Source of the DNA: a virus
Length of the DNA: 40,788 nt
Direction: 5' to 3' (one strand)
Virus genome (UHGV): UHGV-1354494
Positions 1-40,788 of the stretch are shown piece by piece. Position 1 is the first letter of the stretch. Every line of letters begins with the position of its first letter. Made by a program: the position numbers and the translations under genes. The notes under the pieces were generated by a model. That model had not been told where the DNA came from, did no database searches, and worked only from the letters and a program-made list of their open reading frames with translations.

Positions 1-1140
1 AATGTGACCATAACCCCGGTGAGCAGCTCCTCATCCGGGAGCCCGGCCACAAACTACCTCACTGGATACCAGTACCAGAAATATACTCCATCCAGTAAGG
101 TAACGGACTATGCAGATAAACTGGCCGATCTGGAAGACAGCAAACCGGATGCGTACGTAAGCAAGTATGACAGCACCATTGATGATCTCATAGACAGTAT
201 CCTAAACCGGGAACAGTTTGACCCCAACAGCGTGTATGATACGGATCTGTATAAAAACTATCGCGAGCAGTATATGCAGCAGGGGAACAAAGCCATGCGG
301 GATACCATAGGCAATATATCCGGCATGACAGGAGGATATGGATCCACATACGCCACGGCCGCAGGACAGCAGGCATACGATAACTATCTTAGCCAGTTGG
401 GAGATAAAACCCTTGATATCTATGACCGTGTATATCAGCAGTATCTTAATGAGGGCCAGGAGCTGTACAACCAGTTAGGGATGGTCAACAATCAGGACAG
501 CATTGACTACGGCCGTTACCGGGATACGGTCAGTGATTATTATAATGACCTTAACTATTATGCAGGCCGGTATGATAGTTCCTACAATCAGGATTTCGGC
601 GAATACCAGTATGACCAGGATGCAATGAGATGGGCAGAAGAATATGCTTACCAGAAGACCCAGGATGCCCTGGCGCAGCAGAACTGGCAGACCCAGTTTG
701 ACTACCAGAAAGAGCAGGATGCATTGCAATATGCGCTCCAGCAGCAACAGCTGGCCCTGTCGGCCTCCAGATCCAGCAGTGGAGGAAGCAGCAAAAGCAG
801 TAAGACCAGCACCAATGCTTATCTTACTAAGGCCATAAACATGCTGAGCGGCACAGATGGGAGCGATACCCACAAATATCAAAGCAGGACGGTATCGAAT
901 TACCTCAAAAACCAGTATGGGTTATCCACGGAAGAGGCAGAGTACATAACTTCTCAGGCAAATGCGGAAATACAGAAAACAACAAACGCCAATACGGATA
1001 AATACTATGAATATGCAGCTACATATGCCAAGGAACATGATGCAGATGAAGTATTTGATTACCTGAACCGGTACTACGAAAATAATAAGATTAGCGCAGA
1101 GGAAGCGGATGAGATTTATCGTAGGCTGGGATTGGATTAA
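1..1140 (+). CDS. Y/Q/D/S-rich hypothetical virion protein; 5' end runs off the window and may be continuous with the ORF at 40591-40788.
   Basis: Long ORF open from base 1 in frame with the GTG at 4. Low-complexity S/T/N-rich start matches the composition of the ORF that runs off the 3' end. Sits immediately upstream of the giant gene and is translationally coupled to it (stop 1140, RBS ggaggaaat, ATG 1150). Confidence 0.5.
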   Translation, partial: NVTITPVSSSSSGSPATNYLTGYQYQKYTPSSKVTDYADKLADLEDSKPDAYVSKYDSTIDDLIDSILNREQFDPNSVYDTDLYKNYREQYMQQGNKAMRDTIGNISGMTGGYGSTYATAAGQQAYDNYLSQLGDKTLDIYDRVYQQYLNEGQELYNQLGMVNNQDSIDYGRYRDTVSDYYNDLNYYAGRYDSSYNQDFGEYQYDQDAMRWAEEYAYQKTQDALAQQNWQTQFDYQKEQDALQYALQQQQLALSASRSSSGGSSKSSKTSTNAYLTKAINMLSGTDGSDTHKYQSRTVSNYLKNQYGLSTEEAEYITSQANAEIQKTTNANTDKYYEYAATYAKEHDADEVFDYLNRYYENNKISAEEADEIYRRLGLD

Positions 1141-1149
1141 GGAGGAAAT

Positions 1150-4100
1150 ATGTCATTTAGCAGCCGATTAAAAGAAAAGCAGGAGAAAGAAAGGGAGCAG
1201 CAAGGGAAAGAGAGAGCACAGAGGATTGTAAGGAGCGGAGAAAGCTCCTCGCAGAAACCGGTCAATGCGTTCCTGGAGCACAGACAGGCGCGGCAGAGGG
1301 AACAGGATGCACAGATGAAACAGGCAGCCCAGGCGGATCACACCATGGAAAAGACAGATTTCTTCCGCGCGGATCGTGAACAAGCGGCAAAGGACTACAC
1401 AAAGCAGAGGCTCAGCCGGTTCCAGTCGGATTTCTATGGAAACCTCACGCCCAATACATATCTGGATTCTGCCAGCAGCGAGGAACTGTCAGCACTAAGA
1501 AATGCGGAGAAGAACCGGGGGAAGCTGGCAGATATGGCAGAGGAATATGCCAGGATCCGAACAAACCGTCCGAACAATACCGTTATCACAAACAATCTGG
1601 ATACGGCTGGCAGTGAAGATTTGTCTGCATGGGCCAAGCAGGCAAAGGAGGCCAATAAAAAAGCCTACCAAAATCAGAAAGCCATGGATCAGATCGGGTT
1701 CAAGGACGAGGCAGGGGCATTCCATCGATATGACAGCCTGGAAAGGCAGGAACCCGACTTTGCTGAGATGGTAGGAGCCGGGAAGGAAAGAGACAACATC
1801 TTTGACCCGACAGCCTCTTATAGCCCTCTGGACTACCTGAACAAAGACAAACGGGCAGTAATCCAGGGATCCCAGTATAATTTCACTAAAATGACGGATA
1901 CAGAAAAGGATCTATATTATTATCTAAACGGGAAATACGGCCCCCAGGCCGCAGCCAAGTACATAAAGACACTGGGATCGGAACTGAACCGGAGGAATGT
2001 GGAGGATGTACAGGAAAGCGCATCTTCCCTGGCGAAAGAACACCCTGTCCTGGGCGTGGGGCTGGATGCCGGTATCGCAATGGCAGGGAGCGGGGCATAC
2101 CCTGTCCTGCTGGCAGAACAGGCATATAATAATATGATGGGCAGATATGATGATATCGATCCCAATGCCCCGCTGTTTGGATCCTCAGTATTGGGAGAGG
2201 GAATCCGCACGGGAATAACAAACAACGAGGCCCTGAGCAGAGCCATACCCAACGAAGGATTAAGGAACTTCCTTGTCGGGACTGGATTATCCATGACGGA
2301 AAACCTTGCAAGGCTGCCGCTGGGACACTATGGACTTGCAGCCGCCGCAGGAGGAGCTGGACTTTCGGGGACCAGGGAGGCGGTGCAGCGGGGAGGAGAT
2401 AATGGCCAGGCAATTGCATTGGGAATGGCAAATGCAGCGGCAGAGGCATTCTTTGAGAAGTTCTCGCTGGAGGGACTGGAAACCATGAAGGCGGCTCCCG
2501 GTAAAGGAGTAAGGGAATTCTTGAAGAACGTAGGGAAACAGGCCGTGACCGAAGGCTCAGAAGAGGTGTTCACAGAGATAGCAAACAGCATTTCGGATCG
2601 GGCCATCATGGGGGAACTGTCCCAATATCACCTTGCATACGAAACCTATAAAGCACAGGGGATGGATGAGAAGACGGCCAAACAGCAGGCGTTTTTAGAT
2701 TTTATGAAAAACGTAGGGGAAGCAGGCCTGGGAGGTGCATTATCAGGCGGTGTCATGGGTGCTGGAGGTCAGGCATTAGGGAAGATGCAGGAAAGCCATG
2801 CACTTAACCAATATGGAAAGGGCCTGGATGTAGATTACAGAGACTATGTCAATGGATTTTCAGGTATCCAGCAGGAAAGCTATGCAGACCCGACAGATTA
2901 TCAGGAAGCAGTGGATCTCCAGCAGATCGCCCAGGAATATGCCGATAGACAAAAAAACAAGGAGACCATATCAAACCGGGACAAAGCAGAATATGACCTC
3001 CGCTTCCGTCAGTTTGCGGAGAATACCCTGCGCCACAATGAAGAAAAAACTGCTCAAGAAACGAACCAGAATAACCAGCAGACGGAGGAAACACAGCAAT
3101 CAGAACAAACATACACCGAAGCCCCAAAAGCCGAATATGAGCCGTACAGTGAGCCGGAGACCATCCAGGACCATACCCCGGATGCAGCAGAGGAAGGACC
3201 GGAACCGGCCGCCCCACAGGGCCAGCCTGCCCTTAAGCAGGAGACCACCCAAGAAGCCGTATATACACCCGCAGAGACATCCCCACAGGATCAGACAAAA
3301 GTATACCGGAAACCATACGGTAAGAATGGGCAGAAAGCCTTAGAAAAAGGATATGACGGGAGCATTGAGCTGTCCACATACAATAAGGCCTTTGGCCGCG
3401 CCTATGATGCTGGTTATTATAATGTAGATATAGATATCGCGGAACGGTCAGCGATCCGTTCGGTCATAGGCAATGATCAATTCTTGGAAGCGTATAAAGC
3501 AGGTGCCCAGGATTACAACCTGGAAAGCAAGGTGCAGCAGACAAACATGATCCAGGGCGCCCCAAAGGTTGGAGGATTGGGAACCGTATCGGAAAATGCC
3601 ACAACCGCACAGAGAAAAGTCGCAGAGCATATAGGAAAGGCAACGGGCCTGAAAATCAACCTGGTAGACGGGATGGATCAGTCCAATGCAACCGGTTCCT
3701 ACAGGAACGGGGAGATCACCATATCCATCAACAGTAGCGACTTCAACGGATCCCTCACCCACGAACTAACACACCACATCAAAGAGTACTCTCCAAAAGG
3801 ATACAGGCTGTACACAGAAATCGCCGTAGAAGCTCTCATGAGATCAGAGAACACCTCTCTGGAGAACATTGTGGAGAGATATACAAACCAGTATGCAGAT
3901 GCCGGCCAGGAACTGACCCGGGAAGAGGTCATGGAAGAGATCGTGGCAGATGCCACGCAGAAGTTCTTCAATGATACAGAATTTATCAACTCAATCGTGA
4001 ACAAGGATAAGACGATCGCGCAGCGGATCACAGACTTTTTGTCGGATGTGATTGATTCCCTTAAGCAGCTGGTGAAAAACGGAAGCACCAGGGCAGCCGC

Positions 4101-7100
4101 AAAGGGCCTGGAAGAGGACCTGAGATACTATGAGGATGCCAGGGATGCCTGGATGCAGGCATTGGCAGATGCCGGGGAAACCTATAAATCAGGCATAGAG
4201 ACCCAAAAGGAAGGACAGAAAGAAAGGAATGCCCTGGAGAAACCGGATCAGGTAACGGAGCGGCACATCGAAGATAATTATCATACGGTAGTAAATATGG
4301 AGCCTGTAAGTTATCTTAAGGGAAACGAATTTATGAAGGGAGACAAGAACCTGGGACAACAAGTACGGGAATATTTTGCTTCCTTTGGGAATGTGGTACA
4401 CAATGATGTGGTAGGAGATATTATCATAAATAACCGTTCCTTTAAGGATGATTCTTCTCATGGGCTTGGCCGCCTTAAATCCATGACATTCAAAGCAGTG
4501 CCGGAGGTATTGAAAAATGGAAAAATTCTGAATCATTCAAAGAACTGGAAAGAAAGAGGGTATGATTCTGTAATAATTGGAGCAAAGATCAATATTGAAT
4601 CCGGGGAATACGAAGGAGATTATTATGAATTGTGCGTTGTAAAGGTAGATGAGAGCAATCGATTATATCTCCATGAAGTCCATACAACAAAGATGGATGA
4701 AGCTTCGTTCAAGACCGGGGCCACTCAAAAGAGCGGCTTGCCCGGCGAAGCTATACATCCATCTATCTATAGTATATTCGACAAACTGCTCAATGTCAAC
4801 GGAGAAGAAACGAAAAATCAAAGCGGAAAAATGAGGCTCCAGTTGGAGGATGCAGATATTGATCCGAATGACGTGAAACGCCTCCAGGAACAAAACCAGA
4901 TCCTGAGGGAAGCAAACGAACTGTTACAGGAACAGTTCAAACTCACCTCCCGGGAAGACACGCGCCAGGAGGACATAACTAAGATAGCGAAAGGGATTTT
5001 GAGCAAGTATCAAAGCGATTACAGCGAGAAAGTATTAATCAGCAACCTGACAAAGCTGTATGAGTATATCAGGAGTACTGGACAGGTAGATCGGGATGGA
5101 TTGACGGAAGCGGCTTCTGGGATCGCCAGAGGGATCCTGAAACAGACGAAATCACAAAAGCAGAGGCAGGAAGCCGACCTTGTCGAACGGTATAAAGGGG
5201 TAAGAAAGGAAATAAAGAATACCAAGATCAAGTTATCCGATCAGGATAAAGCTGACCTCGGACAGATGGGAGGCTATGAAGCATTCCGCAAAAAGTATTT
5301 TGGAAGGATCACGCTAAGCAAGGATGGTACATCCATTGACAGCCTGTACCAGGAATTAAGTGCACAGCACCCGGAATTGTTCCCGGCTGATATCACCCAC
5401 CCGGCCGACCAGCTGATGGCCGTTGCCCATGCCATTGACCAGACCCAGGAATATGTCCAGAACCCATACCATGCAGATATGGATGAGATGTCCTATATCG
5501 TAGGCCAGGAGATCATACAGTCCTATTTTGAGATCCAGAATAAGATCCCCACGTTTGCGGATCAGAAGGAAGCACAGCTGAATCAGGCCAAAGCCGACTA
5601 TGTATCCAAAATGAAGAAATATCAGGGTGATTTCAATCGAAAGATAAATCAATACAAAGCGGAACTGAATGACCGGTATACAAAGGGGATCCGTGAAGCC
5701 AATAAAGATATCGCCAATGAACGCCAGATCCTGGCAGGACAGCTGAAGCGGGCAAAGGAGCGGATGGAGAATGCAATCGGGGACGAATGGAATGAGGCGA
5801 AGAAAGAATATAATGAACTCATGGAAAGAGGCAGGGATTTAAACCGACAGGAAGCCCAGATCCGATACGTCCTGAACCCCAAAAAGTATGTAGAAAGCAT
5901 GCAAAAGGTGCGGGAGAACAAACAGAAAAGCTCCAATAAGCAGAAAATCATCAAAGATACCATGACGATCCAGAACTGGCTTCTGAAGCCGGATAATAAG
6001 AAACATGTGCCGGATGAAGTAAAAGGAATCGCGCTGGAATTTATCAAGAGCATTGACTACAGTTCAAAGTATCTGAACCAGAAAGGGGAACCGACCCAGC
6101 GTACCAGAGCATGGGATGCCCTCCAGAAGTTCTATGAATCCGTAAAAGACGGAGGGGAATGGATGGGGGAGAACAAAGAATCTGTATACTTTGACTGCGA
6201 TCCAGATATGATTAACCGGATGATGGAACTGAAGGAAAAGGTATATGATATCGAACGCTTGGAAGACCTGAGTCCACGCGAGATGGAATCCCTCCAAAAA
6301 GTAGTGAGTTCCATGAAAAAGACCATCATGGAGATGAATGACCTGAAAGCCAACAAGACGGCGAAACGGGTAGAAGAACTGGCCGGAAAAGCGCTGGGGG
6401 ATCTGGGAAAGATAGCAGGAGAAAACGGGCGAACTGAATATGGAGGCACAGCAGGATACGCAGATAAACTCCTAAACTATGACAACCTGACTCCATATAC
6501 CTTTTTCTGGAAGATGGGGAACGCTATGGAATCCATGTACAGCACTTTCAGGGGCGCAGCAGATAAAAAGACAACCATGCTGAAAGAGGCAGAGGATTAC
6601 ATAGCAGATGTAAAGAAGGAACTGAAGTTGACCCGAAAGGAGATATTGAAATGGTCTGGACCGGAGGCAAAGAAACAGACGTTCCAGGTAACAGGGGGAA
6701 GAATCACCTTGACACCGGCCCAGATCATGTCCTTGTACGAAGCGAACAAGAGAGGACAGGCCAGGGGACATATATATGGAGATGGAATAAGGAGCGCGCC
6801 GAAGCTGGCAAAAGAAAAAGGCGTAAAAGGAGCACTTAAGCCATCTCAGATCATAAAAAGCTATAAGCCGGTAAAAGTCAGTCCAGCAGATGTGGAGAAT
6901 ATCACAAGCACACTGACACCAAAACAGAAACAGTTCGCAGATGCAATACAGGAATTCCTTTCAACAAGGGCGGCTGACTGGGGGAATGAAGCATCGCTTC
7001 TGATGTATGGCTATAAGAAGTTCGTGACGAGGGATTATTTCCCCATATTAACTGATGGAAACTATATCCAGAGCAAGGAAGGGGACCTGAAAAACATGCA

Positions 7101-9225
7101 GACCACCATCCGTAACCTGGGCATGACCAAAAATACGACACCGCATGCCAATAATGCGGTTGTCATGGATGATATCCTTGATATCTTTTCCAGACACATT
7201 GACCAGATGAGTACATACAGCGCATTCCTCGCCCCACTTTCTGATTTCAACAAAGTGTATAATTATAAGAATCGGGAAAAAATGGTCAGCATCAAGCAGG
7301 AGATTGAACGGGCCATGGGCAGCCAGGCCCAGGATTATATCCAGAACCTGATCCATGACATCAATAGTGACTTCAAAGGGGATAACAACATTTTTGAAAA
7401 ATTCCTGTCAAACCAAAAAGCGGCGGCGGTAGCAGGGAGTATCAGCGTTGCAGTCCAGCAGCCATCCTCCATCCTGCGTGCTATGGCTGAAATCGATCCT
7501 AAATACCTGGGAAAAGGCATAGCTACATTCACAAGGAAGGGCCAGTGGGATCTGATCTGTAAATATGCCCCGATCGCGCAGTGGAAGGACTGGGGGTTCT
7601 ACCAGATGAACACAAGCCGATCCATCAAGGATATCATGTTTGAAACGGACAGCACACTGAGGCGCTTTACAAATAGGACTATGGTACTGGCAGAAAGAGG
7701 AGACCGCCTTGCCTGGAACCGGATCTGGAGGGCCTGTGAAAACGAGATAAGCGATAAACATAAGGACCTGAAGCCGGGAACGGAGGAATACTACCAAAAG
7801 GTAGGAGAACGCTTCTCGGAGATCATAGACAGGACACAGGTGGTGGATTCAGTCCTCCACCGCTCCCAGATCATGAGAAGGAAAGACCTGGGATTAAAAA
7901 CAGCAACCGCCTTCATGGGAGAACCGACCAGCACTTACAACATGCTTTACCGCGCAGCGGAAGGGATAAAACAGAAACGCCCCCATGCAAAGGCAAAGGC
8001 CGCCAAAACAGCCGGAGCGATTGCAGCAACCATGGTGCTGGGGGCTGCATTCAAGTCACTCGCCACTGCCCCCAGGGATGACGACCGGGATAAGGGCCTG
8101 CTGGATAAATACACGGATGCTTTCTGGGATAACCTGCTTGATTCCATTAACCCCTTAGGACTGGTGCCGTTTGGGAAAGATGTTGCATCCATTTGGCAGG
8201 GATACTCCGCAACAAGAATGGATGTCCAGGGAGTACAGGATGTTAAAAATGCAAATGATAAGATATGGAAGCTGATAGAAGGGGATAACACCATGACCCC
8301 GCAATACACCGCCGTATACGCATCAAAAATGCTGGGGAACCTTTTCGGGACACCGGCAAGCAATATCGCGAGAGAAATAGAAACCGGCTTAAATGTATAT
8401 CATCAATACATCAACAAAGGGCTTGAGGATGATTATGAATGGGCCAGACAGAAATATGAGATCAAGAACAAATCAAACCTGACCATATATGTGGATATGA
8501 TGATCGAAGCGCAGAGGAATGGGAACAAAGACCTGGAAAAACGGATCAAGACCGACTTAAACAAGAACGAAATTGATAATGAGACCATAACCGCCAAAAT
8601 CAAATCCCTCATAAAGGGAGAACTTATCTCAAAGGACCATGTGGATCCGAGGATCGAGGAAGCAGCCCAGGCCAGGATGGCAGCGGATACAGAATCCTAT
8701 AAAGCAGCGGTCAGTGAACTGATTGCAGAGGGATATGCCGGAAAGCTGGTAAGCTCCGCTGTAGACACCAGGATCAACCAGTTAAGCGGGGAAGAGGAGA
8801 TTGACTGGGAGGAAGAGGCCGCAACGGATCCAGATGAACTGTACGGAGAGATCCTGACTGGAGAAGCGGAAGGGGAAGACTGGGATATATATTCGTCCGC
8901 AGATATCCTGAAAGCAGTTGACCAGGTGGGAACCACCGTGGAAAGCGCAAAAGCCTTTAAAAAGATCACAACCGAAATCGTAGACACCAAAGTCAAAGCC
9001 GGAAAGACCAAAAATGATGCCATAGGGGATATCAAGTCCTCCATCAGCCGCAGATACAAGCAGGAATGGATTGAGGCCTACCTGGCCAAAGATCAGAAAG
9101 GATACGAAGCAATCATGGCCAAACTGAACCGCCTGACAGTGAATGGAAAGAACCTGTACACGGGAGAGGATTATACCAAGTGGAGAAAAGAAGCGAAGGA
9201 GAAAGAAAAGGAAGGAAAAAAGTAG
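1150..9225 (+). CDS. Giant 2691-aa multidomain protein: charged/coiled N-terminus, Gly/Ala-zipper hydrophobic segments (about nt 2040-2790), HExxH zincin-like motif (HELTHH, nt 3760-3777), many coiled-coil stretches. Candidate ejected polyvalent virion protein or an atypical tape-measure-like protein.
   Basis: Uninterrupted 8 kb ORF with RBS aaggaggaaatATG. Shows GxxxG/AxxxA-rich hydrophobic segments typical of tape-measure and ejection proteins. Shows a HExxH preceded by a beta-strand-like segment, as in minimal zincins (ArdC/SprT-like) of phage polyvalent proteins. Followed by a rho-independent terminator. Confidence 0.85.
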   Translation: MSFSSRLKEKQEKEREQQGKERAQRIVRSGESSSQKPVNAFLEHRQARQREQDAQMKQAAQADHTMEKTDFFRADREQAAKDYTKQRLSRFQSDFYGNLTPNTYLDSASSEELSALRNAEKNRGKLADMAEEYARIRTNRPNNTVITNNLDTAGSEDLSAWAKQAKEANKKAYQNQKAMDQIGFKDEAGAFHRYDSLERQEPDFAEMVGAGKERDNIFDPTASYSPLDYLNKDKRAVIQGSQYNFTKMTDTEKDLYYYLNGKYGPQAAAKYIKTLGSELNRRNVEDVQESASSLAKEHPVLGVGLDAGIAMAGSGAYPVLLAEQAYNNMMGRYDDIDPNAPLFGSSVLGEGIRTGITNNEALSRAIPNEGLRNFLVGTGLSMTENLARLPLGHYGLAAAAGGAGLSGTREAVQRGGDNGQAIALGMANAAAEAFFEKFSLEGLETMKAAPGKGVREFLKNVGKQAVTEGSEEVFTEIANSISDRAIMGELSQYHLAYETYKAQGMDEKTAKQQAFLDFMKNVGEAGLGGALSGGVMGAGGQALGKMQESHALNQYGKGLDVDYRDYVNGFSGIQQESYADPTDYQEAVDLQQIAQEYADRQKNKETISNRDKAEYDLRFRQFAENTLRHNEEKTAQETNQNNQQTEETQQSEQTYTEAPKAEYEPYSEPETIQDHTPDAAEEGPEPAAPQGQPALKQETTQEAVYTPAETSPQDQTKVYRKPYGKNGQKALEKGYDGSIELSTYNKAFGRAYDAGYYNVDIDIAERSAIRSVIGNDQFLEAYKAGAQDYNLESKVQQTNMIQGAPKVGGLGTVSENATTAQRKVAEHIGKATGLKINLVDGMDQSNATGSYRNGEITISINSSDFNGSLTHELTHHIKEYSPKGYRLYTEIAVEALMRSENTSLENIVERYTNQYADAGQELTREEVMEEIVADATQKFFNDTEFINSIVNKDKTIAQRITDFLSDVIDSLKQLVKNGSTRAAAKGLEEDLRYYEDARDAWMQALADAGETYKSGIETQKEGQKERNALEKPDQVTERHIEDNYHTVVNMEPVSYLKGNEFMKGDKNLGQQVREYFASFGNVVHNDVVGDIIINNRSFKDDSSHGLGRLKSMTFKAVPEVLKNGKILNHSKNWKERGYDSVIIGAKINIESGEYEGDYYELCVVKVDESNRLYLHEVHTTKMDEASFKTGATQKSGLPGEAIHPSIYSIFDKLLNVNGEETKNQSGKMRLQLEDADIDPNDVKRLQEQNQILREANELLQEQFKLTSREDTRQEDITKIAKGILSKYQSDYSEKVLISNLTKLYEYIRSTGQVDRDGLTEAASGIARGILKQTKSQKQRQEADLVERYKGVRKEIKNTKIKLSDQDKADLGQMGGYEAFRKKYFGRITLSKDGTSIDSLYQELSAQHPELFPADITHPADQLMAVAHAIDQTQEYVQNPYHADMDEMSYIVGQEIIQSYFEIQNKIPTFADQKEAQLNQAKADYVSKMKKYQGDFNRKINQYKAELNDRYTKGIREANKDIANERQILAGQLKRAKERMENAIGDEWNEAKKEYNELMERGRDLNRQEAQIRYVLNPKKYVESMQKVRENKQKSSNKQKIIKDTMTIQNWLLKPDNKKHVPDEVKGIALEFIKSIDYSSKYLNQKGEPTQRTRAWDALQKFYESVKDGGEWMGENKESVYFDCDPDMINRMMELKEKVYDIERLEDLSPREMESLQKVVSSMKKTIMEMNDLKANKTAKRVEELAGKALGDLGKIAGENGRTEYGGTAGYADKLLNYDNLTPYTFFWKMGNAMESMYSTFRGAADKKTTMLKEAEDYIADVKKELKLTRKEILKWSGPEAKKQTFQVTGGRITLTPAQIMSLYEANKRGQARGHIYGDGIRSAPKLAKEKGVKGALKPSQIIKSYKPVKVSPADVENITSTLTPKQKQFADAIQEFLSTRAADWGNEASLLMYGYKKFVTRDYFPILTDGNYIQSKEGDLKNMQTTIRNLGMTKNTTPHANNAVVMDDILDIFSRHIDQMSTYSAFLAPLSDFNKVYNYKNREKMVSIKQEIERAMGSQAQDYIQNLIHDINSDFKGDNNIFEKFLSNQKAAAVAGSISVAVQQPSSILRAMAEIDPKYLGKGIATFTRKGQWDLICKYAPIAQWKDWGFYQMNTSRSIKDIMFETDSTLRRFTNRTMVLAERGDRLAWNRIWRACENEISDKHKDLKPGTEEYYQKVGERFSEIIDRTQVVDSVLHRSQIMRRKDLGLKTATAFMGEPTSTYNMLYRAAEGIKQKRPHAKAKAAKTAGAIAATMVLGAAFKSLATAPRDDDRDKGLLDKYTDAFWDNLLDSINPLGLVPFGKDVASIWQGYSATRMDVQGVQDVKNANDKIWKLIEGDNTMTPQYTAVYASKMLGNLFGTPASNIAREIETGLNVYHQYINKGLEDDYEWARQKYEIKNKSNLTIYVDMMIEAQRNGNKDLEKRIKTDLNKNEIDNETITAKIKSLIKGELISKDHVDPRIEEAAQARMAADTESYKAAVSELIAEGYAGKLVSSAVDTRINQLSGEEEIDWEEEAATDPDELYGEILTGEAEGEDWDIYSSADILKAVDQVGTTVESAKAFKKITTEIVDTKVKAGKTKNDAIGDIKSSISRRYKQEWIEAYLAKDQKGYEAIMAKLNRLTVNGKNLYTGEDYTKWRKEAKEKEKEGKK

Positions 9226-9293: not shown

Positions 9294-9380
9294 ATGGATA
9301 ATGTCTCAGCATTTATTATCTCCGTCATAGCAAGTGTAGTTGGCTACTACATATGCAAATGGCTGGATGGAGATGAATAG
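9294..9380 (+). CDS. 28-aa hydrophobic micro-peptide (MDNVSAFIISVIASVVGYYICKWLDGDE).
   Basis: Strong RBS aaaggaggtgatcctgtATG. Single predicted TM helix. A terminator follows directly. Not in the ORF track because it is under 60 aa. Confidence 0.3.
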   Translation: MDNVSAFIISVIASVVGYYICKWLDGDE

Positions 9381-9423
9381 ACAGCAACAGCCTAAACGGA
9401 CTAGCTCACCGTAACGAGCAAGA

Positions 9424-9460
9424 AAAACCCCAGAGTGGCCGCTCTGGGGTTTTTCGCTTT
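9424..9460 (+). terminator. Rho-independent terminator after the giant gene and micro-peptide.
   Basis: Hairpin ccccagag-tggccgc-tctgggg followed by TTTTTCGCTTT. Confidence 0.6.
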
Positions 9461-10026: not shown

Positions 10027-11625
10027 CTAGATTTTAATATGAAGTTTATTTCCGTCCCAGACACATTCAGCAAACAACTCACGGATAAGCCCATTAATTT
10101 CATCGTAATCGGCCACATCAAGCCTCTCAATTATATGGCATACCATCTGATAACGCTCCATCTTGTCAACCTCCCGTTTTCGGGCTTTGTTTTCTGCCAA
10201 TGAAATATCATACAGCTCCTTCTTTAACTTAGTTATTTGAGTGTCCAAGGTTTCGATGCTGGAAATGATATATTTTGCTGCGGGAGATTCATCAGTATTT
10301 GCGAGGGCTTGTGTTAAGTTTGAGATCTTATTTTGAACAGACTTTAACTCTTTCTCCACAACAGATCTACTACGCAGGGAAGGAATGGGGATAACAGGAG
10401 ATATATACTGGTCGATTAGTGTATAATCCAAAGATATGTCAGTCAATTGCTGTATAACTTCTGCATCGATATCATCCAACCGTATCATTTTCGTGGAGCA
10501 ATACTCAGGGCCCAACCGGTCTTTCCCGGGGCAGTAGTAATGTTGGTACTCGATATTATATTTCTTGTCATACTTATATTTTGTACGCATAAGCCTGCCG
10601 CAGGAACAACGCAGAACGCCTTTTAAGATGCCGATTTTATGCTTTCGTGTCTTGTCTATAATATTTTGGCCAAATCGCTCCTGGATAGACAGAAAGGTTT
10701 GACTATCCAGAATGGGTTTGTGATGCCCTACGGAGATAATCCACTTTTCAGGAGGATTAAGTATTCGCCTCCTCTTGTGCATCCCCTTGCCGGCCCCGCG
10801 TCCGCGACAGTATGCAATAATTCCATGCTGACCGTCAAATGATTCGCGTGGTTTAGCCATTTTACAGCCCATAGAGGCGTAATAATCATACATAATCCCA
10901 TCGGCAGCCACATAGTTTGGATTAGTGAGCAATACCCAAATCTGAGATCCTGTTAAAGTAGCTCCCAGAGGGGTGACAAACTTTTCTTTTTTATATTTTG
11001 TTTCCATTCCTCCCAAACTCAGCCCTTCATTAAGAAAATCATGAACCAACTTATGAAGAAACGGAACTGTGGATGGATTTTCTACAAGAATGGTATGCAT
11101 TCGCATATTATCAGACATGACCCTCTGAAGCTGAAATCCAATGGGTGGGCGTCCGCCACACCAATAACCTTTTTCAGCCAGCTTGATCATGTTGTCAGAA
11201 ACTCGGACAATGGTGTTTTCGCGCTCTATCTGGGAGAAAACGGCATTCATGTACATCATGCCCTTTTCTACAGGGGTCATATCCTCTTTGATCTCAAGGT
11301 TATCCCGCACCGGAATCACGACAAGATCATATTGTACGATCTCACGATAGAACAGAGCCAGATCGGCTACATCTCTTCCCACGCGATCAAGTTTATAGCA
11401 TACAATGATATCCAGGACATGATTACGCATATCCGAAATCAGGCGTTCCCAATCAGGGCGGAACATATCGCCGCCGGACCTATCTTCGTCAATGTAATAG
11501 ATAACTTGCTTCTCAACAGCTGGATAATGCTTTTCAATGTACTCCTCAGCTAAGAGCACTTGATTCTCCACGCTGTCCGATTGATCACTATGTAGAGACT
11601 TTCTCGCATAAATTCCAAAAATCAA
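10027..11625 (-). CDS. Large serine recombinase (site-specific integrase/resolvase family).
   Basis: N-terminal resolvase catalytic domain (YARKS with catalytic Ser, LDRVGRD). Recombinase domain GGRPPIGF. Cys-rich zinc ribbon (CSCGRL...YYCPG...C). C-terminal coiled coil. 532 aa. Confidence 0.9.
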   Translation of the reverse strand: MIFGIYARKSLHSDQSDSVENQVLLAEEYIEKHYPAVEKQVIYYIDEDRSGGDMFRPDWERLISDMRNHVLDIIVCYKLDRVGRDVADLALFYREIVQYDLVVIPVRDNLEIKEDMTPVEKGMMYMNAVFSQIERENTIVRVSDNMIKLAEKGYWCGGRPPIGFQLQRVMSDNMRMHTILVENPSTVPFLHKLVHDFLNEGLSLGGMETKYKKEKFVTPLGATLTGSQIWVLLTNPNYVAADGIMYDYYASMGCKMAKPRESFDGQHGIIAYCRGRGAGKGMHKRRRILNPPEKWIISVGHHKPILDSQTFLSIQERFGQNIIDKTRKHKIGILKGVLRCSCGRLMRTKYKYDKKYNIEYQHYYCPGKDRLGPEYCSTKMIRLDDIDAEVIQQLTDISLDYTLIDQYISPVIPIPSLRSRSVVEKELKSVQNKISNLTQALANTDESPAAKYIISSIETLDTQITKLKKELYDISLAENKARKREVDKMERYQMVCHIIERLDVADYDEINGLIRELFAECVWDGNKLHIKI

Positions 11626-18884: not shown

Positions 18885-19610
18885 ATGAAAGTATGTTGGT
18901 TTAGCACCGGAGTATCGTCTTTTGTGGCGTGTTACTTGGCTAAGGATATTGATAAAATTATTTACACTCATGTCGAAAATCAACATCCTGATAGTCTGAG
19001 ATTTTTGAAGGATTGCGAGGCGATTTTGGGAAGAAAGATTGAGCCTATACAATCAGATAAATACAAAGATGTGGATGATGTAATTGAAAATACCAGATGC
19101 ATAAACACAGCTTTTGGAGCACCCTGCACTAAATGGTTGAAAAAACAGGTACGCAGAGACTGGGAGGCAGCGAATCCAGACCATCATACATATGTGTGGG
19201 GTTATGATGTGAATGAGATGCACAGAGCAGACGCAGTTGTTAAAGCGCTTTCTGACTACGACCATGAGTTCCCGTTGATTGAGAATGGATTGACAAAAGC
19301 AGAGTGCCACGGGATAGCCGATAAACTGGGGCTGAAACGCCCAGTAATGTATGACATGGGGTATCCAAACAACAACTGCATTGGTTGCGTAAAAGGCGGC
19401 ATGGGATACTGGAATAAGATTCGGATTGATTTCCCGGAGGTGTTTGAACGCCGAGCCAGACAGGAGAGGGAGATAGGGCATAGTTGTATCGGGGGAGTAT
19501 ATCTGGACGAGTTAGACCCGAACCGTGGAAGGATGGACCTGGAGGTTATGGAAGACTGTACGATAGCCTGCCAATTACTTAGCCAGGGGATAGGCTGGAT
19601 AAATGACTGA
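18885..19610 (+). CDS. PP-loop ATP-pyrophosphatase superfamily protein (PAPS-reductase/QueC-like), divergent P-loop.
   Basis: N-terminal VCWFSTGVSSFVACYLA resembles the SGGxDS PP-loop. Downstream Cys cluster NNCIGC. 241 aa. RBS aggaggtacctATG. Confidence 0.5.
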   Translation: MKVCWFSTGVSSFVACYLAKDIDKIIYTHVENQHPDSLRFLKDCEAILGRKIEPIQSDKYKDVDDVIENTRCINTAFGAPCTKWLKKQVRRDWEAANPDHHTYVWGYDVNEMHRADAVVKALSDYDHEFPLIENGLTKAECHGIADKLGLKRPVMYDMGYPNNNCIGCVKGGMGYWNKIRIDFPEVFERRARQEREIGHSCIGGVYLDELDPNRGRMDLEVMEDCTIACQLLSQGIGWIND

Positions 19611-20542: not shown

Positions 20543-20995
20543 ATGAAAAGAATATTGGATGCCTGCTGTGGCAGCCGAATGTTTTATTTCGACAGGCAGA
20601 ATCCAGATGTAATCTATGCTGATAACAGGGAGGTCGAAACAACTTTGTGTGATGGTCGCACATTGTTGATAAAGCCTGATGTGCAAATGGATTTCAGGGA
20701 TATGCCATATAAAGACAATACTTTTAAGGTTGTTGTATTTGACCCTCCGCACTTAATCCATGCTGGTACGGGTAGTTGGTTGGCCAGTAAGTACGGAATA
20801 CTCCCGCTGGATTGGCCAAAGTATCTGAGAGCAGGATTTAATGAGTGCATGAGAGTTTTGGAACCGAATGGTCTGTTGATATTTAAGTGGAATGAGGACC
20901 AGATTGGACTGAATGAGGTTTTAAAAGTTTTTGAGAGGAAGCCTTTGCTGGGTGATCAAAGAGGGAAGACACGGTGGTTGGTCTTTATCAAATAG
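20543..20995 (+). CDS. Small SAM-dependent amino-methyltransferase-like protein (motif I LDACCGS, motif IV VVFDPPH). Probably a DNA (N6A/N4C) or RsmD-like methyltransferase.
   Basis: Order of motif I then DPPH, as in gamma-class amino-MTases. 150 aa. RBS ttggaggttttATG. Confidence 0.55.
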   Translation: MKRILDACCGSRMFYFDRQNPDVIYADNREVETTLCDGRTLLIKPDVQMDFRDMPYKDNTFKVVVFDPPHLIHAGTGSWLASKYGILPLDWPKYLRAGFNECMRVLEPNGLLIFKWNEDQIGLNEVLKVFERKPLLGDQRGKTRWLVFIK

Positions 20996-21146
20996 ATTAG
21001 AATTTCTATCGGTATCAGATCCCACAAGGGATGATACATACAGCGGTAAATATAGTTGGTCAGATTGCATATGTCACGAATACTTTCTGACGCTGGGCCG
21101 GGATCCGAATGTCCTCCGTTTCCCGGCCCGAAGGAGGTGGGAACAG

Positions 21147-21434
21147 ATGAAAAAAGAAACCAGGATTCTATTTGAAACCAGATGGAAAGAGATAATAAGA
21201 AAGCAGAGAGAGGGAAAACCGGGAAAAGTGTATGGATCGTATGTGCTCATGAAGACCGAGGAAAGGTATGAGGAAGCCAAAAAGCTGATAAGGGAGCAAG
21301 CGGAAATGAGCATTGAAGATGTGATCCGGCAGGAAGATACCAGAAAAACAGCAGAAGAACTGATAGAAGACATCGAGATCATAACAATTGAAAAATATGG
21401 AGCAATACTGGTTGGGTGGATACTGACTACGTAA
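21147..21434 (+). CDS. Hypothetical charged protein (95 aa).
   Basis: Strong RBS cgaaggaggtgggaacagATG. A 9-bp perfect GC hairpin lies immediately upstream. Confidence 0.45.
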   Translation: MKKETRILFETRWKEIIRKQREGKPGKVYGSYVLMKTEERYEEAKKLIREQAEMSIEDVIRQEDTRKTAEELIEDIEIITIEKYGAILVGWILTT

Positions 21435-21690: not shown

Positions 21691-22737
21691 ATGAATAACG
21701 CAGAAAATCAGAGTGTAAAAGCGCAGATCATCAATAACGTGATCGTATCAATGACTTACTACCTTAACCCGGATGTTCTGGAAATGTTGGAGCGCGTCTT
21801 GGCTAAAAATCTGGTGGATGTGGTAATAGAACGGATTAACACATTGCCGATGGAAATGAAGGACAGCATAGACAGCCAGAACGGGTACATATTGCAGTTG
21901 TTTTTGTACAAGAAGAAGAAACTTCAGGACGGGACAAAATACGGCTATGTCAGTGCGATCAAACGGCTGGTAACCCTGGTGTATAAGCCTCTGACAGACA
22001 TGGAGGAATCAGACATCTATTATTACCTGGATTGGTATGAAAACCGGAATGTATCCATAACCGGCAAGAAGAACCAGGCGAGGACGATCAACAACGAGCG
22101 CCGCTTTCTATCGGCTTTTTTCACCTGGATGAGAAAGGAAAAGTTGATTGGCAGCAACCCGGTGGAAGCAATCGAGCCGCTAAAGGTAACGAAGAAACCG
22201 ATCGATTATTTTACCCCGGAGGAGATGGCAAGCCTGAAGGATGGGTGCGAAAGCCTGCGGGAAAGGGCCGTGATCGAAGTGTTGAGGAGTACAGGGGCCA
22301 GGGTTGGGGAAATCGTTGGGATTACCATTGACCTGATCAACTGGGAGACTGGAGATGTCATGATCTTAGGAGAGAAGGGAAACCGATACCGTACCCTGTA
22401 CCTGGATCCAGATGCCATACACCATTTCAGAAAGTATTTAAATAGCCGGACAGACAACAACCCAGCCATATTTGTCAGCTCTAAGAAGCCGCACCAGGCA
22501 TTATCTACCTGCGCGATCCGTGGGATCGTAAAAGAGGTGGCACAGCGGGCCGGAATCACCAGCCGCGCTTATCCTCATAAGATGCGCAAGACCCTGGGCA
22601 TGGAACTGAAGAATAAAGGCGTGGATATAGGCACCATACAAGAGATCATGGGACATGCAGACAGTAAGGTCACATCCTTATATTATGCGCAATCAACCCC
22701 AGACACATTGCGAGTGATCCGTAACAAAGCGGCATAG
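21691..22737 (+). CDS. int: Tyrosine integrase (phage integrase family).
   Basis: Catalytic signatures RSTGARVGE (Arg), HKMRKT (HxxR) and GHADSKVTSLYY (His and Tyr nucleophile). 348 aa. Adjacent to the tRNA-like fragment. Confidence 0.9.
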   Translation: MNNAENQSVKAQIINNVIVSMTYYLNPDVLEMLERVLAKNLVDVVIERINTLPMEMKDSIDSQNGYILQLFLYKKKKLQDGTKYGYVSAIKRLVTLVYKPLTDMEESDIYYYLDWYENRNVSITGKKNQARTINNERRFLSAFFTWMRKEKLIGSNPVEAIEPLKVTKKPIDYFTPEEMASLKDGCESLRERAVIEVLRSTGARVGEIVGITIDLINWETGDVMILGEKGNRYRTLYLDPDAIHHFRKYLNSRTDNNPAIFVSSKKPHQALSTCAIRGIVKEVAQRAGITSRAYPHKMRKTLGMELKNKGVDIGTIQEIMGHADSKVTSLYYAQSTPDTLRVIRNKAA

Positions 22738-22881: not shown

Positions 22882-23718
22882 ATGAGGAGTAACACAATGG
22901 CATGTATAGAGAGCGTATGCTATGCAGGCAGGACAAAGCACATCCGGGCATACTATTCAGCAAAGTACAATGATGGAAAATTGGTACAGAGGGAGAAAAG
23001 GGAAAAGAAGGAGAAGCCCACCAGTGAGAAGCAGGCGGAGATCAACCGGAGGAACTCCCTTCGGACCCTGACACGGACCATGGATGCAAACTTTTCAGGG
23101 GAAGACTTGTATGTGACATACAGCTTCGGGAAGGACAAGCGCCCAGGGAGCCCGGAGAAGTTCCGGGCATGCATCAGACAGTTTTTAAAGCAGCTGCGCA
23201 AACTCTACAGACAGGCCGGAGTGATCCTAAAGTACATCTGGGTGGCAGAGCGGGGAGAGCGGGGAGCCGAGCATATACATATGGTCCAGTCGGGAGGTAT
23301 TGATATCAGCAAATTGAAGATCGCATGGCCCCATGGCTGGATCAATGCAGTGCCCATGGATGAGAGCGGGAGCTACCACAAGCTGGCTGCCTATTTTATC
23401 AAGTATTCAGATAAAACCATGCGGACGGAAGGGAGATTCCAGGGAAAGCGTTATAATCCATCCCGCAACCTGATCCACCCGGAACCGGAAAAGGCCAAGG
23501 TAAGGAAACGCGGCCGGATCGACCCAGGCGCGATCCAGGTGCCGGATGGATACTATCTGGACAAGGAGACCATACAGTCAGGCGTGCAGGAAAATGGTTA
23601 CGAGTTTTTAGAATATACCTTAGTCCTGCTGCCAGGCTACCACATACCGGCCCATGACCGGGCGAACGCCAAACAGAACAGACAGAGCCGGCAGCGAAGG
23701 AAAAAGCGGTCCAGATAA
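22882..23718 (+). CDS. rep: HUH rolling-circle replication initiator (Rep_1/phiX-A-like).
   Basis: Motif 1 LYVTYSF. Motif 2 AEHIHMVQSG (HUH). Motif 3 LAAYFIKYSDK (YxxKY..K). A 7-bp hairpin and the CAGGGGGATAACC element lie upstream. Confidence 0.65.
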   Translation: MRSNTMACIESVCYAGRTKHIRAYYSAKYNDGKLVQREKREKKEKPTSEKQAEINRRNSLRTLTRTMDANFSGEDLYVTYSFGKDKRPGSPEKFRACIRQFLKQLRKLYRQAGVILKYIWVAERGERGAEHIHMVQSGGIDISKLKIAWPHGWINAVPMDESGSYHKLAAYFIKYSDKTMRTEGRFQGKRYNPSRNLIHPEPEKAKVRKRGRIDPGAIQVPDGYYLDKETIQSGVQENGYEFLEYTLVLLPGYHIPAHDRANAKQNRQSRQRRKKRSR

Positions 23719-24495: not shown

Positions 24496-25068
24496 GTGGC
24501 AAGGCAGAAGTGGCAGGAATGGGCAGAAAATGAAGACAGGCTGTCCATATTGGCGGCATGGGCCAGGGCAGGGAAGACGGATGAGGAGATCGCCAAGCTG
24601 ATCGGGATCAGCCGGTCTACCCTCAGTGAGTGGAAAAAGAAGCATGAATCCATAGGAAAGGCCCTGAGCATCACTAAGGACTACGCAGACCGCCTGATAG
24701 AGGGAAGCCTGTATAAGATAGCCCGTGGATATACAGTGACCAATAAAAAGCCGATCAAAACCCGGCATGTGACATACACAAACGGAGTAAAGACCGCAGA
24801 GGATGAGATCATTGAATACGCGGAAGAAACCATCTATGTCCCAGGGGAAGCAAGACTGATCATGTTCTGGCTGGAGAACAGGATGCCGGAATGGCGCAAA
24901 CGGTACGAGAAAGCAAGGGATCTTGATGGCGATGAAGAGAACCAGACCGGCACCGTTGTTATGAGCACAGACATAGCGGAAGATATCAAACAACTCATGG
25001 AGGAAGAAAAGAGTGCAAGAGAAGAGAAAGAACGCAGGGAAGAACAAGACTGGAAAGAAAACAGATAA
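24496..25068 (+). CDS. terS: Terminase small subunit (HTH, Terminase_2-like), GTG start.
   Basis: HTH (IAKLIGISRSTLSEWKKK) and the characteristic FWLENRMPEWRKR segment. RBS aaaggagg. Immediately upstream of TerL. Confidence 0.8.
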   Translation: MARQKWQEWAENEDRLSILAAWARAGKTDEEIAKLIGISRSTLSEWKKKHESIGKALSITKDYADRLIEGSLYKIARGYTVTNKKPIKTRHVTYTNGVKTAEDEIIEYAEETIYVPGEARLIMFWLENRMPEWRKRYEKARDLDGDEENQTGTVVMSTDIAEDIKQLMEEEKSAREEKERREEQDWKENR

Positions 25069-25087
25069 GGCAGAAGCAAGGGAATTT

Positions 25088-26536
25088 ATGAGGACCCACA
25101 ACGTCATATGGGCTCCCTCCAAAAGACAGCAGGCCATGATGACACGGCTGGAGTTTGAAGGCCTGTATGGAGGGGCTGCCGGAGGTGGGAAAACAGATTA
25201 CCTGCTGGTGGAAGCGCTACGGCAGGTGCGTATCCGCGAATACCGGGCAATCATATTCAGAAAAACATACCCGGAACTGGAAGACCTGATCAGCAGATCC
25301 ATGGAGTTGTACAGGGCGGCGTTCCCCAAAGCCCGCTATAACTCAAGTCGCCACGTATGGACATTTCCCAGCGGGGCAAAGATCTATTTCGGGTCCATGC
25401 AGTACCCCAAGGACCGCTTAAAGTATCAAGGCCGCCATTTTGACTTTGTAGGTTTTGACGAACTAACGCATTTTGGTTGGGACGAATACAATTATCTGTT
25501 TTCCCGCGTACGATCAAGTGCACCGGGGCTGCGCAGGTATATCCGGTCTACAGCCAATCCGGGAGGCCCGGGCCATGGATGGGTCAAGTCGAGATTTGTT
25601 TCACCGGCAGAGCCGGGTACAACCATTGTGGAGACAAAAGAGACCACAGATCCCAAAGGGAATATCCTGCGTTTTACAAGGGATCGTGTATTCATTCCGA
25701 GTAAGGTGTTCGATAATCCAGATCTGATACGTAACAACCCGGATTATGTCGCATCCCTGGCAATGATGCCGGAAGCCCTGAGAAAGGCCCTGCTGGATGG
25801 GGATTGGGATTCATTTAACGGACAGGTATTCACTGAATGGAGGAACGACCCGGAAAATTATGATACAAGGCAGTGGACGCATGTGATTAGCCCATTCAGG
25901 ATCCCGGACGGATGGCTGGTCGGACGCAGCTACGATTTTGGCTATGCAAAACCATTCTCTGTCGGCTGGTATGCCATTGACTATACCGGCTGCGTGTACC
26001 GGATCCGGGAGCTGTATGGTTGCGTAGACAAGGAACCGAACACAGGAATCAAGATCGATCCCACCGAACAGGCCAGGAGAATCAAGGAAATAGAGAACAC
26101 GGATGAGAACCTGAAAGGAAGAAACATAGTAGGGATTGCAGACCCGTCCATATTTGACACCAGCCACGGGGATTCCATTGCGGATCTCATGGCCCGGGAG
26201 GGCGTATACTGGAGCCCGGGAGACAACCAGCGTATCGCAGGGAAGATGCAGTACCATTACCGGCTGGCATTCAATAAAGACGGCCTGCCTATGTTTTATG
26301 TATTTGACACTTGCAGGGAATTCATCCGCACGATCCCCCAGCTGGTCTATGACGAAAAGAAAGTGGAGGATATTGATACAACCCAGGAGGACCACATCTA
26401 TGACGAGTGCCGGTACTTCCTCATGGAGCACATGATCGCCCGGCGGGAAAACACAAAGAAGCCGGTTCCAATGGATGACCCGCTGGATCTGTATAAAGAC
26501 GAGAGGAAAAAGGCATATAAATTCATCAGGATATAG
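25088..26536 (+). CDS. terL: Terminase large subunit.
   Basis: Walker A GGAAGGGKT. Size and position between TerS and portal. Acidic nuclease-domain residues present. ATG at 25088 with an RBS. Confidence 0.85.
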   Translation: MRTHNVIWAPSKRQQAMMTRLEFEGLYGGAAGGGKTDYLLVEALRQVRIREYRAIIFRKTYPELEDLISRSMELYRAAFPKARYNSSRHVWTFPSGAKIYFGSMQYPKDRLKYQGRHFDFVGFDELTHFGWDEYNYLFSRVRSSAPGLRRYIRSTANPGGPGHGWVKSRFVSPAEPGTTIVETKETTDPKGNILRFTRDRVFIPSKVFDNPDLIRNNPDYVASLAMMPEALRKALLDGDWDSFNGQVFTEWRNDPENYDTRQWTHVISPFRIPDGWLVGRSYDFGYAKPFSVGWYAIDYTGCVYRIRELYGCVDKEPNTGIKIDPTEQARRIKEIENTDENLKGRNIVGIADPSIFDTSHGDSIADLMAREGVYWSPGDNQRIAGKMQYHYRLAFNKDGLPMFYVFDTCREFIRTIPQLVYDEKKVEDIDTTQEDHIYDECRYFLMEHMIARRENTKKPVPMDDPLDLYKDERKKAYKFIRI

Positions 26537-35535: not shown

Positions 35536-35594
35536 ATGAGAACAGGAGGGGAGGCAGAGGTGCTTTCCCTTTTATGCTAACAGGAGGGATAAAC

Positions 35595-40590: not shown

Positions 40591-40788
40591 ATGGCAGTTG
40601 GAAGCATTGTGGATTACTTAAAAAGCATAGGACAAGACAGCTCCTACAGCAGCCGGAAAAACCTTGCAAGCCAGTATGGGATCAGCAACTATTCCGGCAC
40701 AGCATCCCAGAACACAAACCTGCTTAAGGCCTTGCAAAGCGGCAGCTCACAGGCAGGCAGCACAAACAATAATACAGCCAATGGAGCC
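40591..40788 (+). CDS. 5' part of a virion protein with a short Cpl-7-like (putative peptidoglycan-binding) motif. Runs off the window end and may continue into 1-1140.
   Basis: ATG with RBS aaaggggga. Segment SIGQDSSYSSRKNLASQYGISNYSGTASQNTNLLKAL resembles the CW_7 helix-loop-helix repeat. Ends on a complete codon at 40788, in frame with bases 1-3 and the ORF at 4. Confidence 0.45.
   Translation, partial: MAVGSIVDYLKSIGQDSSYSSRKNLASQYGISNYSGTASQNTNLLKALQSGSSQAGSTNNNTANGA

Follow-up and report, generated by a model that had tools for sequence, protein, structure and literature searches.

A 2691-Residue Polyvalent Protein With a Zincin-Like Domain and an Exchangeable Domain Slot Encoded at the Late-Operon End of a Phage Genome

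Anatomy of the Giant Protein

The virus genome UHGV-1354494 (40,788 nt; "the window" below is this whole stretch of DNA) carries a giant open reading frame (ORF) that encodes a polyvalent protein of 2691 amino acids (aa). A preliminary description, made from the letters alone, had pointed out an uninterrupted ORF taking up about one fifth of the window. This is correct, as the ORF begins with ATG and covers 8076 of 40788 nt, i.e., 19.8% of the genome, and the Gly/Ala-rich segments and the GEITISINSS and HELTHH motifs that it listed are all in place (Table 1). The gene product has a mass of 303 kDa and a pI of 5.7. It is identical to GenBank DAP98219.1, whose record bears the label LPD3 polyvalent, and its full-length homologues (2400-3160 aa, 44-98% identity) come from Enterocloster citroniae, E. 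clostridioformis, E. aldenensis, E. bolteae, E. lavalensis, Lacrimispora, and Lachnoclostridium.

Scans with the whole protein gave no match in Pfam or in NCBIfam, where 0 families were reported at E<=1, and searches of the PDB with either the sequence or the family profile gave only coiled-coil noise. The sole PHROG match was to phrog_22978, a family without assigned function (E=3e-260, best stretch aa 1566-2660). Sequence conservation among the relatives nevertheless delineates a conserved chassis, which comprises a Gly/Ala-rich domain, a predicted zincin-like domain with an HExxH...E signature, a coiled coil, and a helical C-terminal module of ~1000-1100 aa, arranged around a variable slot.

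The protein class, the GenBank label, and the occurrence of 8-kb ORFs in Enterocloster podophages are all on record already. A study of Clostridium clostridioforme LM41 published in 2024 described the prophages phi1 and phi4, which are ~41 kb long, predicted to be podoviruses and spontaneously released, and showed podovirus-like particles by transmission electron microscopy (TEM); each prophage has an 8-kb ORF at its 3' end that accounts for almost 20% of the genome and has limited similarity to LPD3 polyvalent proteins (PMC11318856). Taken alone, the finding of the giant gene thus repeats the existing GenBank label and a published remark. What we add is a domain map, an unclassified HExxH...E domain, a cassette system confined to one slot, and the superfamily size of an uncurated module of ~1000 aa.

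Table 1. Features of the giant gene and of the surrounding genome (nucleotide positions refer to the window).
Feature	Residues (aa)	Position (nt)	Strand	Remarks
Giant ORF, polyvalent protein	2691 in total	1150-9225	+	ATG start, no internal stop; last gene of the late operon
Highly charged N-terminus	1-290	1150-2019	+	In 42/150 superfamily representatives
Gly/Ala-rich domain	291-560	2020-2829	+	Motif TEGSEEVFTEIAN; in 89/150 representatives
Gly/Ala-rich segment VLGVGLDAGIAMAGSGAY	300-317	2047-2100		
Gly/Ala-rich segment LAAAAGGAGLSGT	396-408	2335-2373		
Gly/Ala-rich segment GEAGLGGALSGGVMGAGGQALG	523-544	2716-2781		
Acidic linker	631-720	3040-3309	+	Q/E/T/P-rich, low complexity, pI 4.05
Predicted zincin-like metallopeptidase domain	816-1040	3595-4269	+	HELTH at 3760-3774
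GEITISINSS		3709-3738		
HELTHH	871-876	3760-3777		
Predicted third ligand, ExxxD motif	E930	3937-3939		
Variable effector slot	1039-1228	4264-4833	+	Holds LPD3 here
LPD3	~1065-1181	4342-4692		Conserved H1104, K1110, K1134, R1136, Y1173, H1175
Charged helical/coiled-coil region	1230-1600	4837-5949	+	In 136/150 representatives
C-terminal module core (C1-C2)	1600-2420	5947-8409	+	Basic, pI ~9, almost all alpha-helical
C-terminal extension (C3)	2420-2691	8407-9222	+	Acidic, helical; in 70/150 representatives
Terminator-like hairpin		9422-9455	+	15-bp stem; late-operon end, ~200 nt 3' of the giant gene
Upstream gene, 5' part		40591-40788	+	DUF3597 N-terminal domain; Pfam and PHROG matches
Upstream gene, 3' part		1-1140	+	In-frame join over the circular junction, 445 aa in total
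phrog_511 "internal virion protein"	521 in total	36957-38522	+	Synteny with the giant gene kept
TerL		25013-26536		Late region
Portal		26546-28471		Late region
Major capsid protein		29899-30891		Late region
Holin		34993-35268		Late region
Endolysin-like protein		35574-36566		Late region
Integrases and Rep		10027-11625; 21691-22737; 22882-23718	-; +; +	

The HExxH Domain Has a Predicted Zincin-Like Arrangement

A helical lead-in and the HExxH domain together occupy aa 720-1040. In a protein of this composition ~0.04 HExxH motifs would be expected by chance. H871, E872, H875, E930, and A933 are invariant in 33-37 family members as well as in 15 giants of 25-40% identity, and conservation of D934 in the closer relatives extends the second signature to ExxxD. 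Across 22 isolated domains that share only 19-33% identity, H871, E872, and E930 remain invariant and H875 nearly so. Among representatives clustered at 50% identity, the HExxH motif was found in 102 of the 106 domain matches. When only the HExxH domain served as query in a second word-indexed search for homologues, the outcome was uninformative, with just four fragments.

In an AlphaFold2 (AF2) model of aa 720-1230, with a mean predicted local distance difference test (pLDDT) score of 69.4, a helix (819-832) is followed by three strands (835-839, 849-852, and 855-859, the last reading "EITIS"), the HExxH motif is carried by helix 865-880, and E930 and D934 sit on helix 924-939. The modeled order of helix, three strands, HExxH helix, and Glu helix places the HExxH residues and E930 in the canonical zincin arrangement. 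The domain may be an active metallopeptidase. The preliminary description had gone further and compared the region with ArdC/SprT-type zincins. Its zincin-like HExxH...E arrangement is supported by conservation and by the AF2 topology, which is zincin-like and does not contradict the fold. The "ArdC/SprT-type" label, in contrast, is too specific because no Pfam peptidase or zincin model reaches significance, including MPTase-PolyVal (PF18818) and SprT-like (PF10263), and the match to the ArdC type likewise stays below its cut-off.

One Slot Accepts Different Effector-Type Domains

Between the zincin-like domain and the coiled coil lies a slot that holds an LPD3 domain in the present protein. 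With the segment as query, the Pfam LPD3 family (PF18798) scored 22.6 bits (E=1.3e-4), below its 27-bit cut-off, and the scan with the whole protein did not report it. The same family scored 28.7 bits in P0004, an orthologue with 89% identity, and a family hidden Markov model (HMM) of the region matched the LPD3 domain of gp60 from Pseudomonas phage H66, which itself reaches 47.6 bits against Pfam, at E=2e-18. The possible nuclease or toxin-like module that the preliminary description had suspected at nt 4380-4700 coincides with this domain.

The content of the slot varied widely among 120 orthologues. LPD3 alone was present in ~72, a PBECR3-like cassette took its place in 32, and in 15 the slot was empty and reduced to a linker of 25 residues; four orthologues combined LPD3 with a PBECR5 block of ~500 aa, and one carried two LPD3 copies. 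ART-PolyVal, LPD23, and MuF_C domains also occur in the slots of relatives, and among the representatives between 0 and 1260 aa separate the zincin-like domain from the coiled coil. The slot contents are replacements rather than divergent homologues, since an hhalign comparison of the LPD3 and PBECR3 cassettes showed no similarity. LPD3 itself may be a metal-independent nuclease, as suggested by its conserved His/His/Lys/Arg set and by the nucleases and ADP-ribosyltransferase (ART) toxins that replace it.

Gly/Ala-Rich Domain, Coiled Coil, and C-Terminal Module

No hydrophobic stretch resembling a signal peptide is present in the charged N-terminus (aa 1-290). In the region that follows (aa 290-560), Gly and Ala make up 30% of the residues. 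The preliminary description had read the three Gly/Ala-rich segments as glycine zippers of membrane-inserting type. The composition agrees with this, and [GA]xxx[GA] patterns are modestly enriched (33 against 23.7 in shuffled sequences, with ~0.9% of shuffles reaching 33), but GxxxG itself is not (6 observed, 6.3 in shuffles). When hydropathy was calculated according to Kyte-Doolittle in 19-residue windows, the best window of the region scored 1.29 (maxima 1.29-1.41), under the usual transmembrane cut-off. We therefore rejected a transmembrane reading of the segments on hydropathy and on the absent GxxxG enrichment. A role of the domain in membrane insertion is still possible by analogy, as the "transmembrane" regions of T7 gp16 are folded and soluble before ejection.

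A 1121-aa ORF (L065:849-4214) on the 100-kb Subdoligranulum variabile plasmid OY725839.1 also carries the Gly/Ala-rich domain (32% identity, motif GEGSEELFTELAN), followed by two HExxH domains and without the C-terminal module. The pair of Gly/Ala-rich domain and zincin-like domain appears to be an independent unit because it stands alone in this plasmid ORF.

The coiled-coil region matched only intermediate-filament and apolipoprotein-type proteins in PDB sequence searches. The C1-C2 core behind it was present in all 150 representatives, making it the universal part of the superfamily, and contains many invariant polar residues. At E<=1e-3, the C-terminal module was detected in 5127 cluster representatives (50% identity); the proteins that carry it are phage giants of 2000-3900 aa. 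It has no Pfam family, no specific fold match in the PDB, and no solved relative. The AF2 model of the module consists of helical bundles (pLDDT 69.8) and matches, with E-values down to 3e-43, C-terminal pieces in BFVD of giants named MuF-C, nuclease, PolyVal ART, or LPD. A BFVD match to a "structural protein" of the podoviral Tenacibaculum phage Gundel was considered as evidence for a place in the virion and rejected as too weak (E 5e-8, TMq 0.24). Together, the Gly/Ala-rich domain, the coiled coil, and the C-terminal module account for about 60% of the protein, and this part lies outside the named Pfam domains of the polyvalent protein catalogue of Iyer et al.

Genomic Context

The window represents a circularly permuted complete genome of 40.8 kb: it is circular because the ORF that begins at 40591 continues in frame at position 1 and ends at 1140. 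The joined ORF encodes a 445-aa protein with a wall-binding-like DUF3597 domain at its N-terminus and a Q/Y/D-rich body. The giant gene starts 9 nt past the stop codon of this gene, behind the ribosome-binding site (RBS) AAGGAGG (AAGGAGGAAAT). It is the largest as well as the last gene of the late operon, has the same orientation as the late structural genes, and is followed by the only strong terminator. Beyond the hairpin, a serine integrase is encoded on the opposite strand. Between the stop codon of the giant gene and the hairpin lies a 28-codon ORF (nt 9294-9380, + strand) for a hydrophobic peptide, MDNVSAFIISVIASVVGYYICKWLDGDE, which we list as a candidate gene only.

In addition to the genes in Table 1, the late region encodes a 647-aa protein with fibre repeats and two fibres with S74 chaperone domains. 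The gene order phrog_511 protein, fibres, DUF3597 protein, giant protein is kept in a bacterial prophage and in at least 44 IMG/VR contigs, mostly of 36-42 kb. In 44 IMG/VR loci and one E. clostridioformis prophage, the giant gene is directly preceded by the DUF3597 gene, which may encode a functional partner of the giant protein. On the E. clostridioformis chromosome, the genes around the orthologue P0035 (2687 aa, ~54% identity) are arranged as in the window. The preliminary description had noted that no tail tube or chaperone genes precede the giant gene. This holds for the whole circular genome, in which we found no tail tube, sheath, tape-measure, chaperone, Dit, or Tal gene. The phage is most likely a temperate, podovirus-type phage of Enterocloster or related Lachnospiraceae.

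Comparison With Known Systems

The framework for phage-type polyvalent proteins was set out by Iyer, Burroughs, Anand, de Souza & Aravind (2017; PMC5512222). Like the proteins described there, the giant protein is a very large polypeptide encoded among virion genes and joins a zincin-like HExxH "hub" to LPD3, and its orthologues shuffle PBECR nucleases, ART-PolyVal, LPD23, and MuF_C at one position. It differs in that its HExxH domain is not recognized by the Pfam MPTase-PolyVal model. At least two unrelated conflict-type domains, a location among late/virion genes, and domain shuffling across 120 orthologues and 150 representatives mark it as polyvalent. The GenBank label and the PBECR3, PBECR5, ART-PolyVal, LPD23, and MuF_C domains in the slots of orthologues bear out the class that the preliminary description had proposed.

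LM41 phi1 and phi4 are among the closest described phages. They share with the present phage a genome of ~41 kb, a temperate lifestyle, a predicted podovirus morphology, and the giant ORF of ~20% of the genome at the 3' end; the present phage represents another sequence variant, and the LM41 paper gives no domain map (PMC11318856).

Two more distant giants are known from virions. In Pseudomonas phage H66 (Hollowayvirus, F116-like), gp60 (3787 aa, L001:4444-15807) bears the annotation "PLxRFG domain-containing protein"; its record states that mass spectrometry verified it as a virion component. As in the window, its gene closes the structural module in the genome of a temperate podovirus; in H66, lysis genes then follow. 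The two proteins share a collinear HExxH/helical/LPD3 module, corresponding to aa 850-1217 of the present protein (BLASTP E=1e-12), and gp60 likewise has Gly/Ala-rich patches near its N-terminus and two strand-HExxH motifs. It differs by an additional methyltransferase, LPD23, and the second HExxH. An HMM built from 151 C1-C2 sequences did not match H66 gp60, and the NCBIfam scan of the giant protein did not report a PLxRFG domain. A common origin of the C-terminal module and PLxRFG proteins was thus rejected at the sensitivity of HMMs, which covered every region and were compared with both H66 gp60 and phi24B gp47, the only matches being LPD3 (in H66) and faint ones in the HExxH region; a correspondence between the motifs "YFPI..D" and "PLSRFG" was dropped for want of support. 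In Lastavirus phages, ~19% of the genome is spent on such a giant, a PLxRFG protein of 495 kDa.

The second giant, gp47 of Stx phage phi24B (vb_24B_48, 2807-2811 aa, L003:29149-37572), is also polyvalent and encoded by the last gene in the record of a temperate podovirus. It is abundant in virions according to proteomics, absent from cryo-electron microscopy maps, and has been proposed to be an ejection protein packaged in the capsid (bioRxiv 10.64898/2026.04.10.717836). It resembles the present protein in two strand-HExxH motifs and Gly/Ala-rich N-terminal patches. It differs in that profile similarity is faint and confined to the surroundings of HExxH, the domain set is LPD5/LPD1/LPD38 and MuF-C, and the C-terminal half shows no similarity. 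The architecture, with a giant gene ending the late region, recurs in phi24B and H66 without detectable homology beyond the HExxH/LPD3 parts. We also note that MuF-C is described as a metallopeptidase in the phi24B preprint (bioRxiv 10.64898/2026.04.10.717836) and as a PBECR domain with an RNase fold by Iyer et al. (PMC5512222), a conflict that bears on how gp47-like proteins are read.

In its proposed working, the giant protein would resemble T7 gp14/15/16 and P22 gp7/20/16, large soluble helical proteins that are stored in the capsid, unfold, and pass the portal, as well as N4 gp50, which contains a zincin domain and has terminal domains for encapsidation and injection (PMC5512222). It differs from these systems in that we found no sequence or fold similarity, in that RNA polymerase and transglycosylase domains are absent, and in its host, which is of Gram-positive type.

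A Probable Internal Virion Protein

In our view the protein is probably one of the internal virion proteins of a temperate short-tailed phage, a giant that is packed in the capsid and leaves through the portal together with the DNA. This reading builds on the anatomy of the protein, its conservation, the exchange of cassettes, the position in the late operon, and a genome that lacks a long-tail apparatus. Packaging would agree with precedents, namely the detection of H66 gp60 and phi24B gp47 in virions by mass spectrometry and the podovirus-like particles of LM41, and ejection and an anti-restriction role would likewise agree with the context and with what is known from other phages. The C-terminal module, and perhaps the Gly/Ala-rich domain, could mediate incorporation into the capsid and passage or a conduit across the envelope, comparable to T7 gp15/gp16 and the termini of N4 gp50. 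The zincin-like domain might liberate the cargo by cleaving the polyprotein, or it might act on a target in the host, and LPD3 would be a delivered effector that acts on host defence or RNA in the first minutes of infection.

Several observations weigh against this interpretation. The place of this lineage's protein in the virion and its ejection are deduced from precedent in other phages, and the C-terminal module, the part most likely to serve these steps, has no sequence or fold relation to solved ejection proteins, H66 gp60, or phi24B gp47. Fold support for the zincin-like domain is weak, with all comparisons at Z<=6.1 and a model pLDDT of 69, and the Pfam peptidase models fail on it, as described above. 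No transmembrane helix is predicted in the Gly/Ala-rich segments, and LPD3 and the PBECR3 cassettes have no detectable similarity. Finally, the giant gene adjoins the attachment/integrase end, a location that lysogenic-conversion genes tend to occupy as well.

A bolder version is tentative and in our view doubtful: the C-terminal module and the Gly/Ala-rich/zincin unit may form a "delivery chassis" universal to short-tailed phages, a single-polypeptide ejectosome that would replace the three-protein system of T7 and P22, build a trans-envelope conduit, and carry swappable effector cassettes released by the zincin.

Some of the same observations would suit a mainly structural role as an ejectosome or internal-core protein, which we regard as unlikely. 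The chassis would then serve as the DNA conduit over the thick Gram-positive wall and the membrane, HExxH would act in wall digestion or assembly processing, and LPD3 would be structural. Such a role fits the fact that the C-terminal module, coiled coil, zincin-like domain, and Gly/Ala-rich domain are the conserved parts, and the cargo is dispensable, given that 15 of 120 orthologues have an empty slot. The genome shows no other evident function in piercing the wall or as a tape measure, the phi24B authors proposed just such a role for gp47 (bioRxiv 10.64898/2026.04.10.717836), and T7 gp16 is likewise large, soluble, and helical, with "membrane" segments that are folded before ejection. However, the slots of relatives hold domains of toxin type, ART-PolyVal and PBECR nucleases, which would be meaningful only in the host cytoplasm, Pfam and NCBIfam scans revealed no peptidoglycan-hydrolase domain in the giant protein, and no solved ejectosome protein resembles it in fold.

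It is quite improbable that the gene merely sits at the prophage end and encodes a non-virion protein acting in the cytoplasm, in lysogenic conversion, superinfection exclusion, or defence. The neighboring integrase/att end would fit such a function, nucleases and ARTs occur in defence and toxin systems too (PMC5512222), and a virion location of this lineage's protein is deduced from precedent in other phages. Yet the gene is co-oriented with the late structural genes, follows the preceding gene after a gap of just 9 nt, has its own RBS, and precedes the sole strong terminator. Its position after the fibre and DUF3597 genes is kept in ~45 divergent phage contigs, mass spectrometry has placed the analogous giants of H66 and phi24B in the virion, and 20% of the genome would be a heavy accessory load, yet it is kept in every relative.

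There is very little to be said for the view that the C-terminal ~1100 aa hide an N4-like virion RNA polymerase or some other nucleic-acid enzyme carried in the virion: N4 gp50 is a giant ejected polyvalent protein with a zincin (PMC5512222), one related Pseudomonas record names its giant "putative internal virion polymerase", and the C1-C2 core is basic with many invariant polar residues, but the module is almost purely made of helical bundles, no N4-like single-subunit RNA polymerase domain was found in the giant protein, and a temperate phage with its own repressor and antirepressor presumably uses the host RNA polymerase. Equally hard to credit is a tape-measure protein of a long-tailed phage with overlooked tail genes, which the preliminary description had also discounted; size, helical content, and Gly/Ala-rich hydrophobic patches are superficially similar, but the protein is not a tape measure because tail tube, tape-measure, Dit, Tal, sheath, and chaperone-frameshift genes are absent from the closed circular genome, no tape-measure family in Pfam, PHROGs, or NCBIfam matches it, the close relatives are predicted podoviruses with podovirus-like particles by TEM (PMC11318856), and 2691 aa would mean a tail of ~400 nm.

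The lineage of this protein is of interest in several respects. Polyvalent proteins are regarded as the earliest phage molecules at work inside a cell, and almost none have been studied experimentally. The lineage consists of temperate podoviruses of Lachnospiraceae that are abundant in the human gut, and its collinear proteins with an empty slot, LPD3, PBECR3, PBECR5, ART, or other domains form a natural series that provides a system for studying cargo delivery, the role of LPD3, and release by the zincin. The mechanism of packaging and ejection probably resides in the large helical module, which has neither a curated family nor a structure.

Other Features of the Genome

A megablast search against the phage collection gave no match. 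The early region encodes a repressor, an antirepressor, a DNA methyltransferase, a tyrosine integrase, a Rep protein, and a PAPS-reductase-like protein (nt 18885-19610, + strand, phrog_424). The methyltransferase-like ORF (nt 20543-20995, + strand) overlaps a second ORF of 167 aa (nt 20931-21434, + strand), and the two could be a split or frameshifted methylase. Two integrase classes, a large serine recombinase and a tyrosine integrase, occur in the same genome together with the Rep protein, which has rolling-circle-type PHROG matches; this combination hints at a mosaic or phage-plasmid-like lifestyle.

The late/structural half, to which the giant gene belongs, has a GC content of ~0.50, and the early/lysogeny region (~9-22 kb) one of 0.38-0.44; the AT skew of the + strand is strongly positive (~0.3) over the late genes. 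Within the structural block, nt 33333-33956 (+ strand) encode a 207-aa protein resembling Tad2 (Thoeris anti-defence 2; Pfam E=1.7e-21), and a Tad2-like gene is found at the matching position in the E. clostridioformis prophage (L002:2117-2611).

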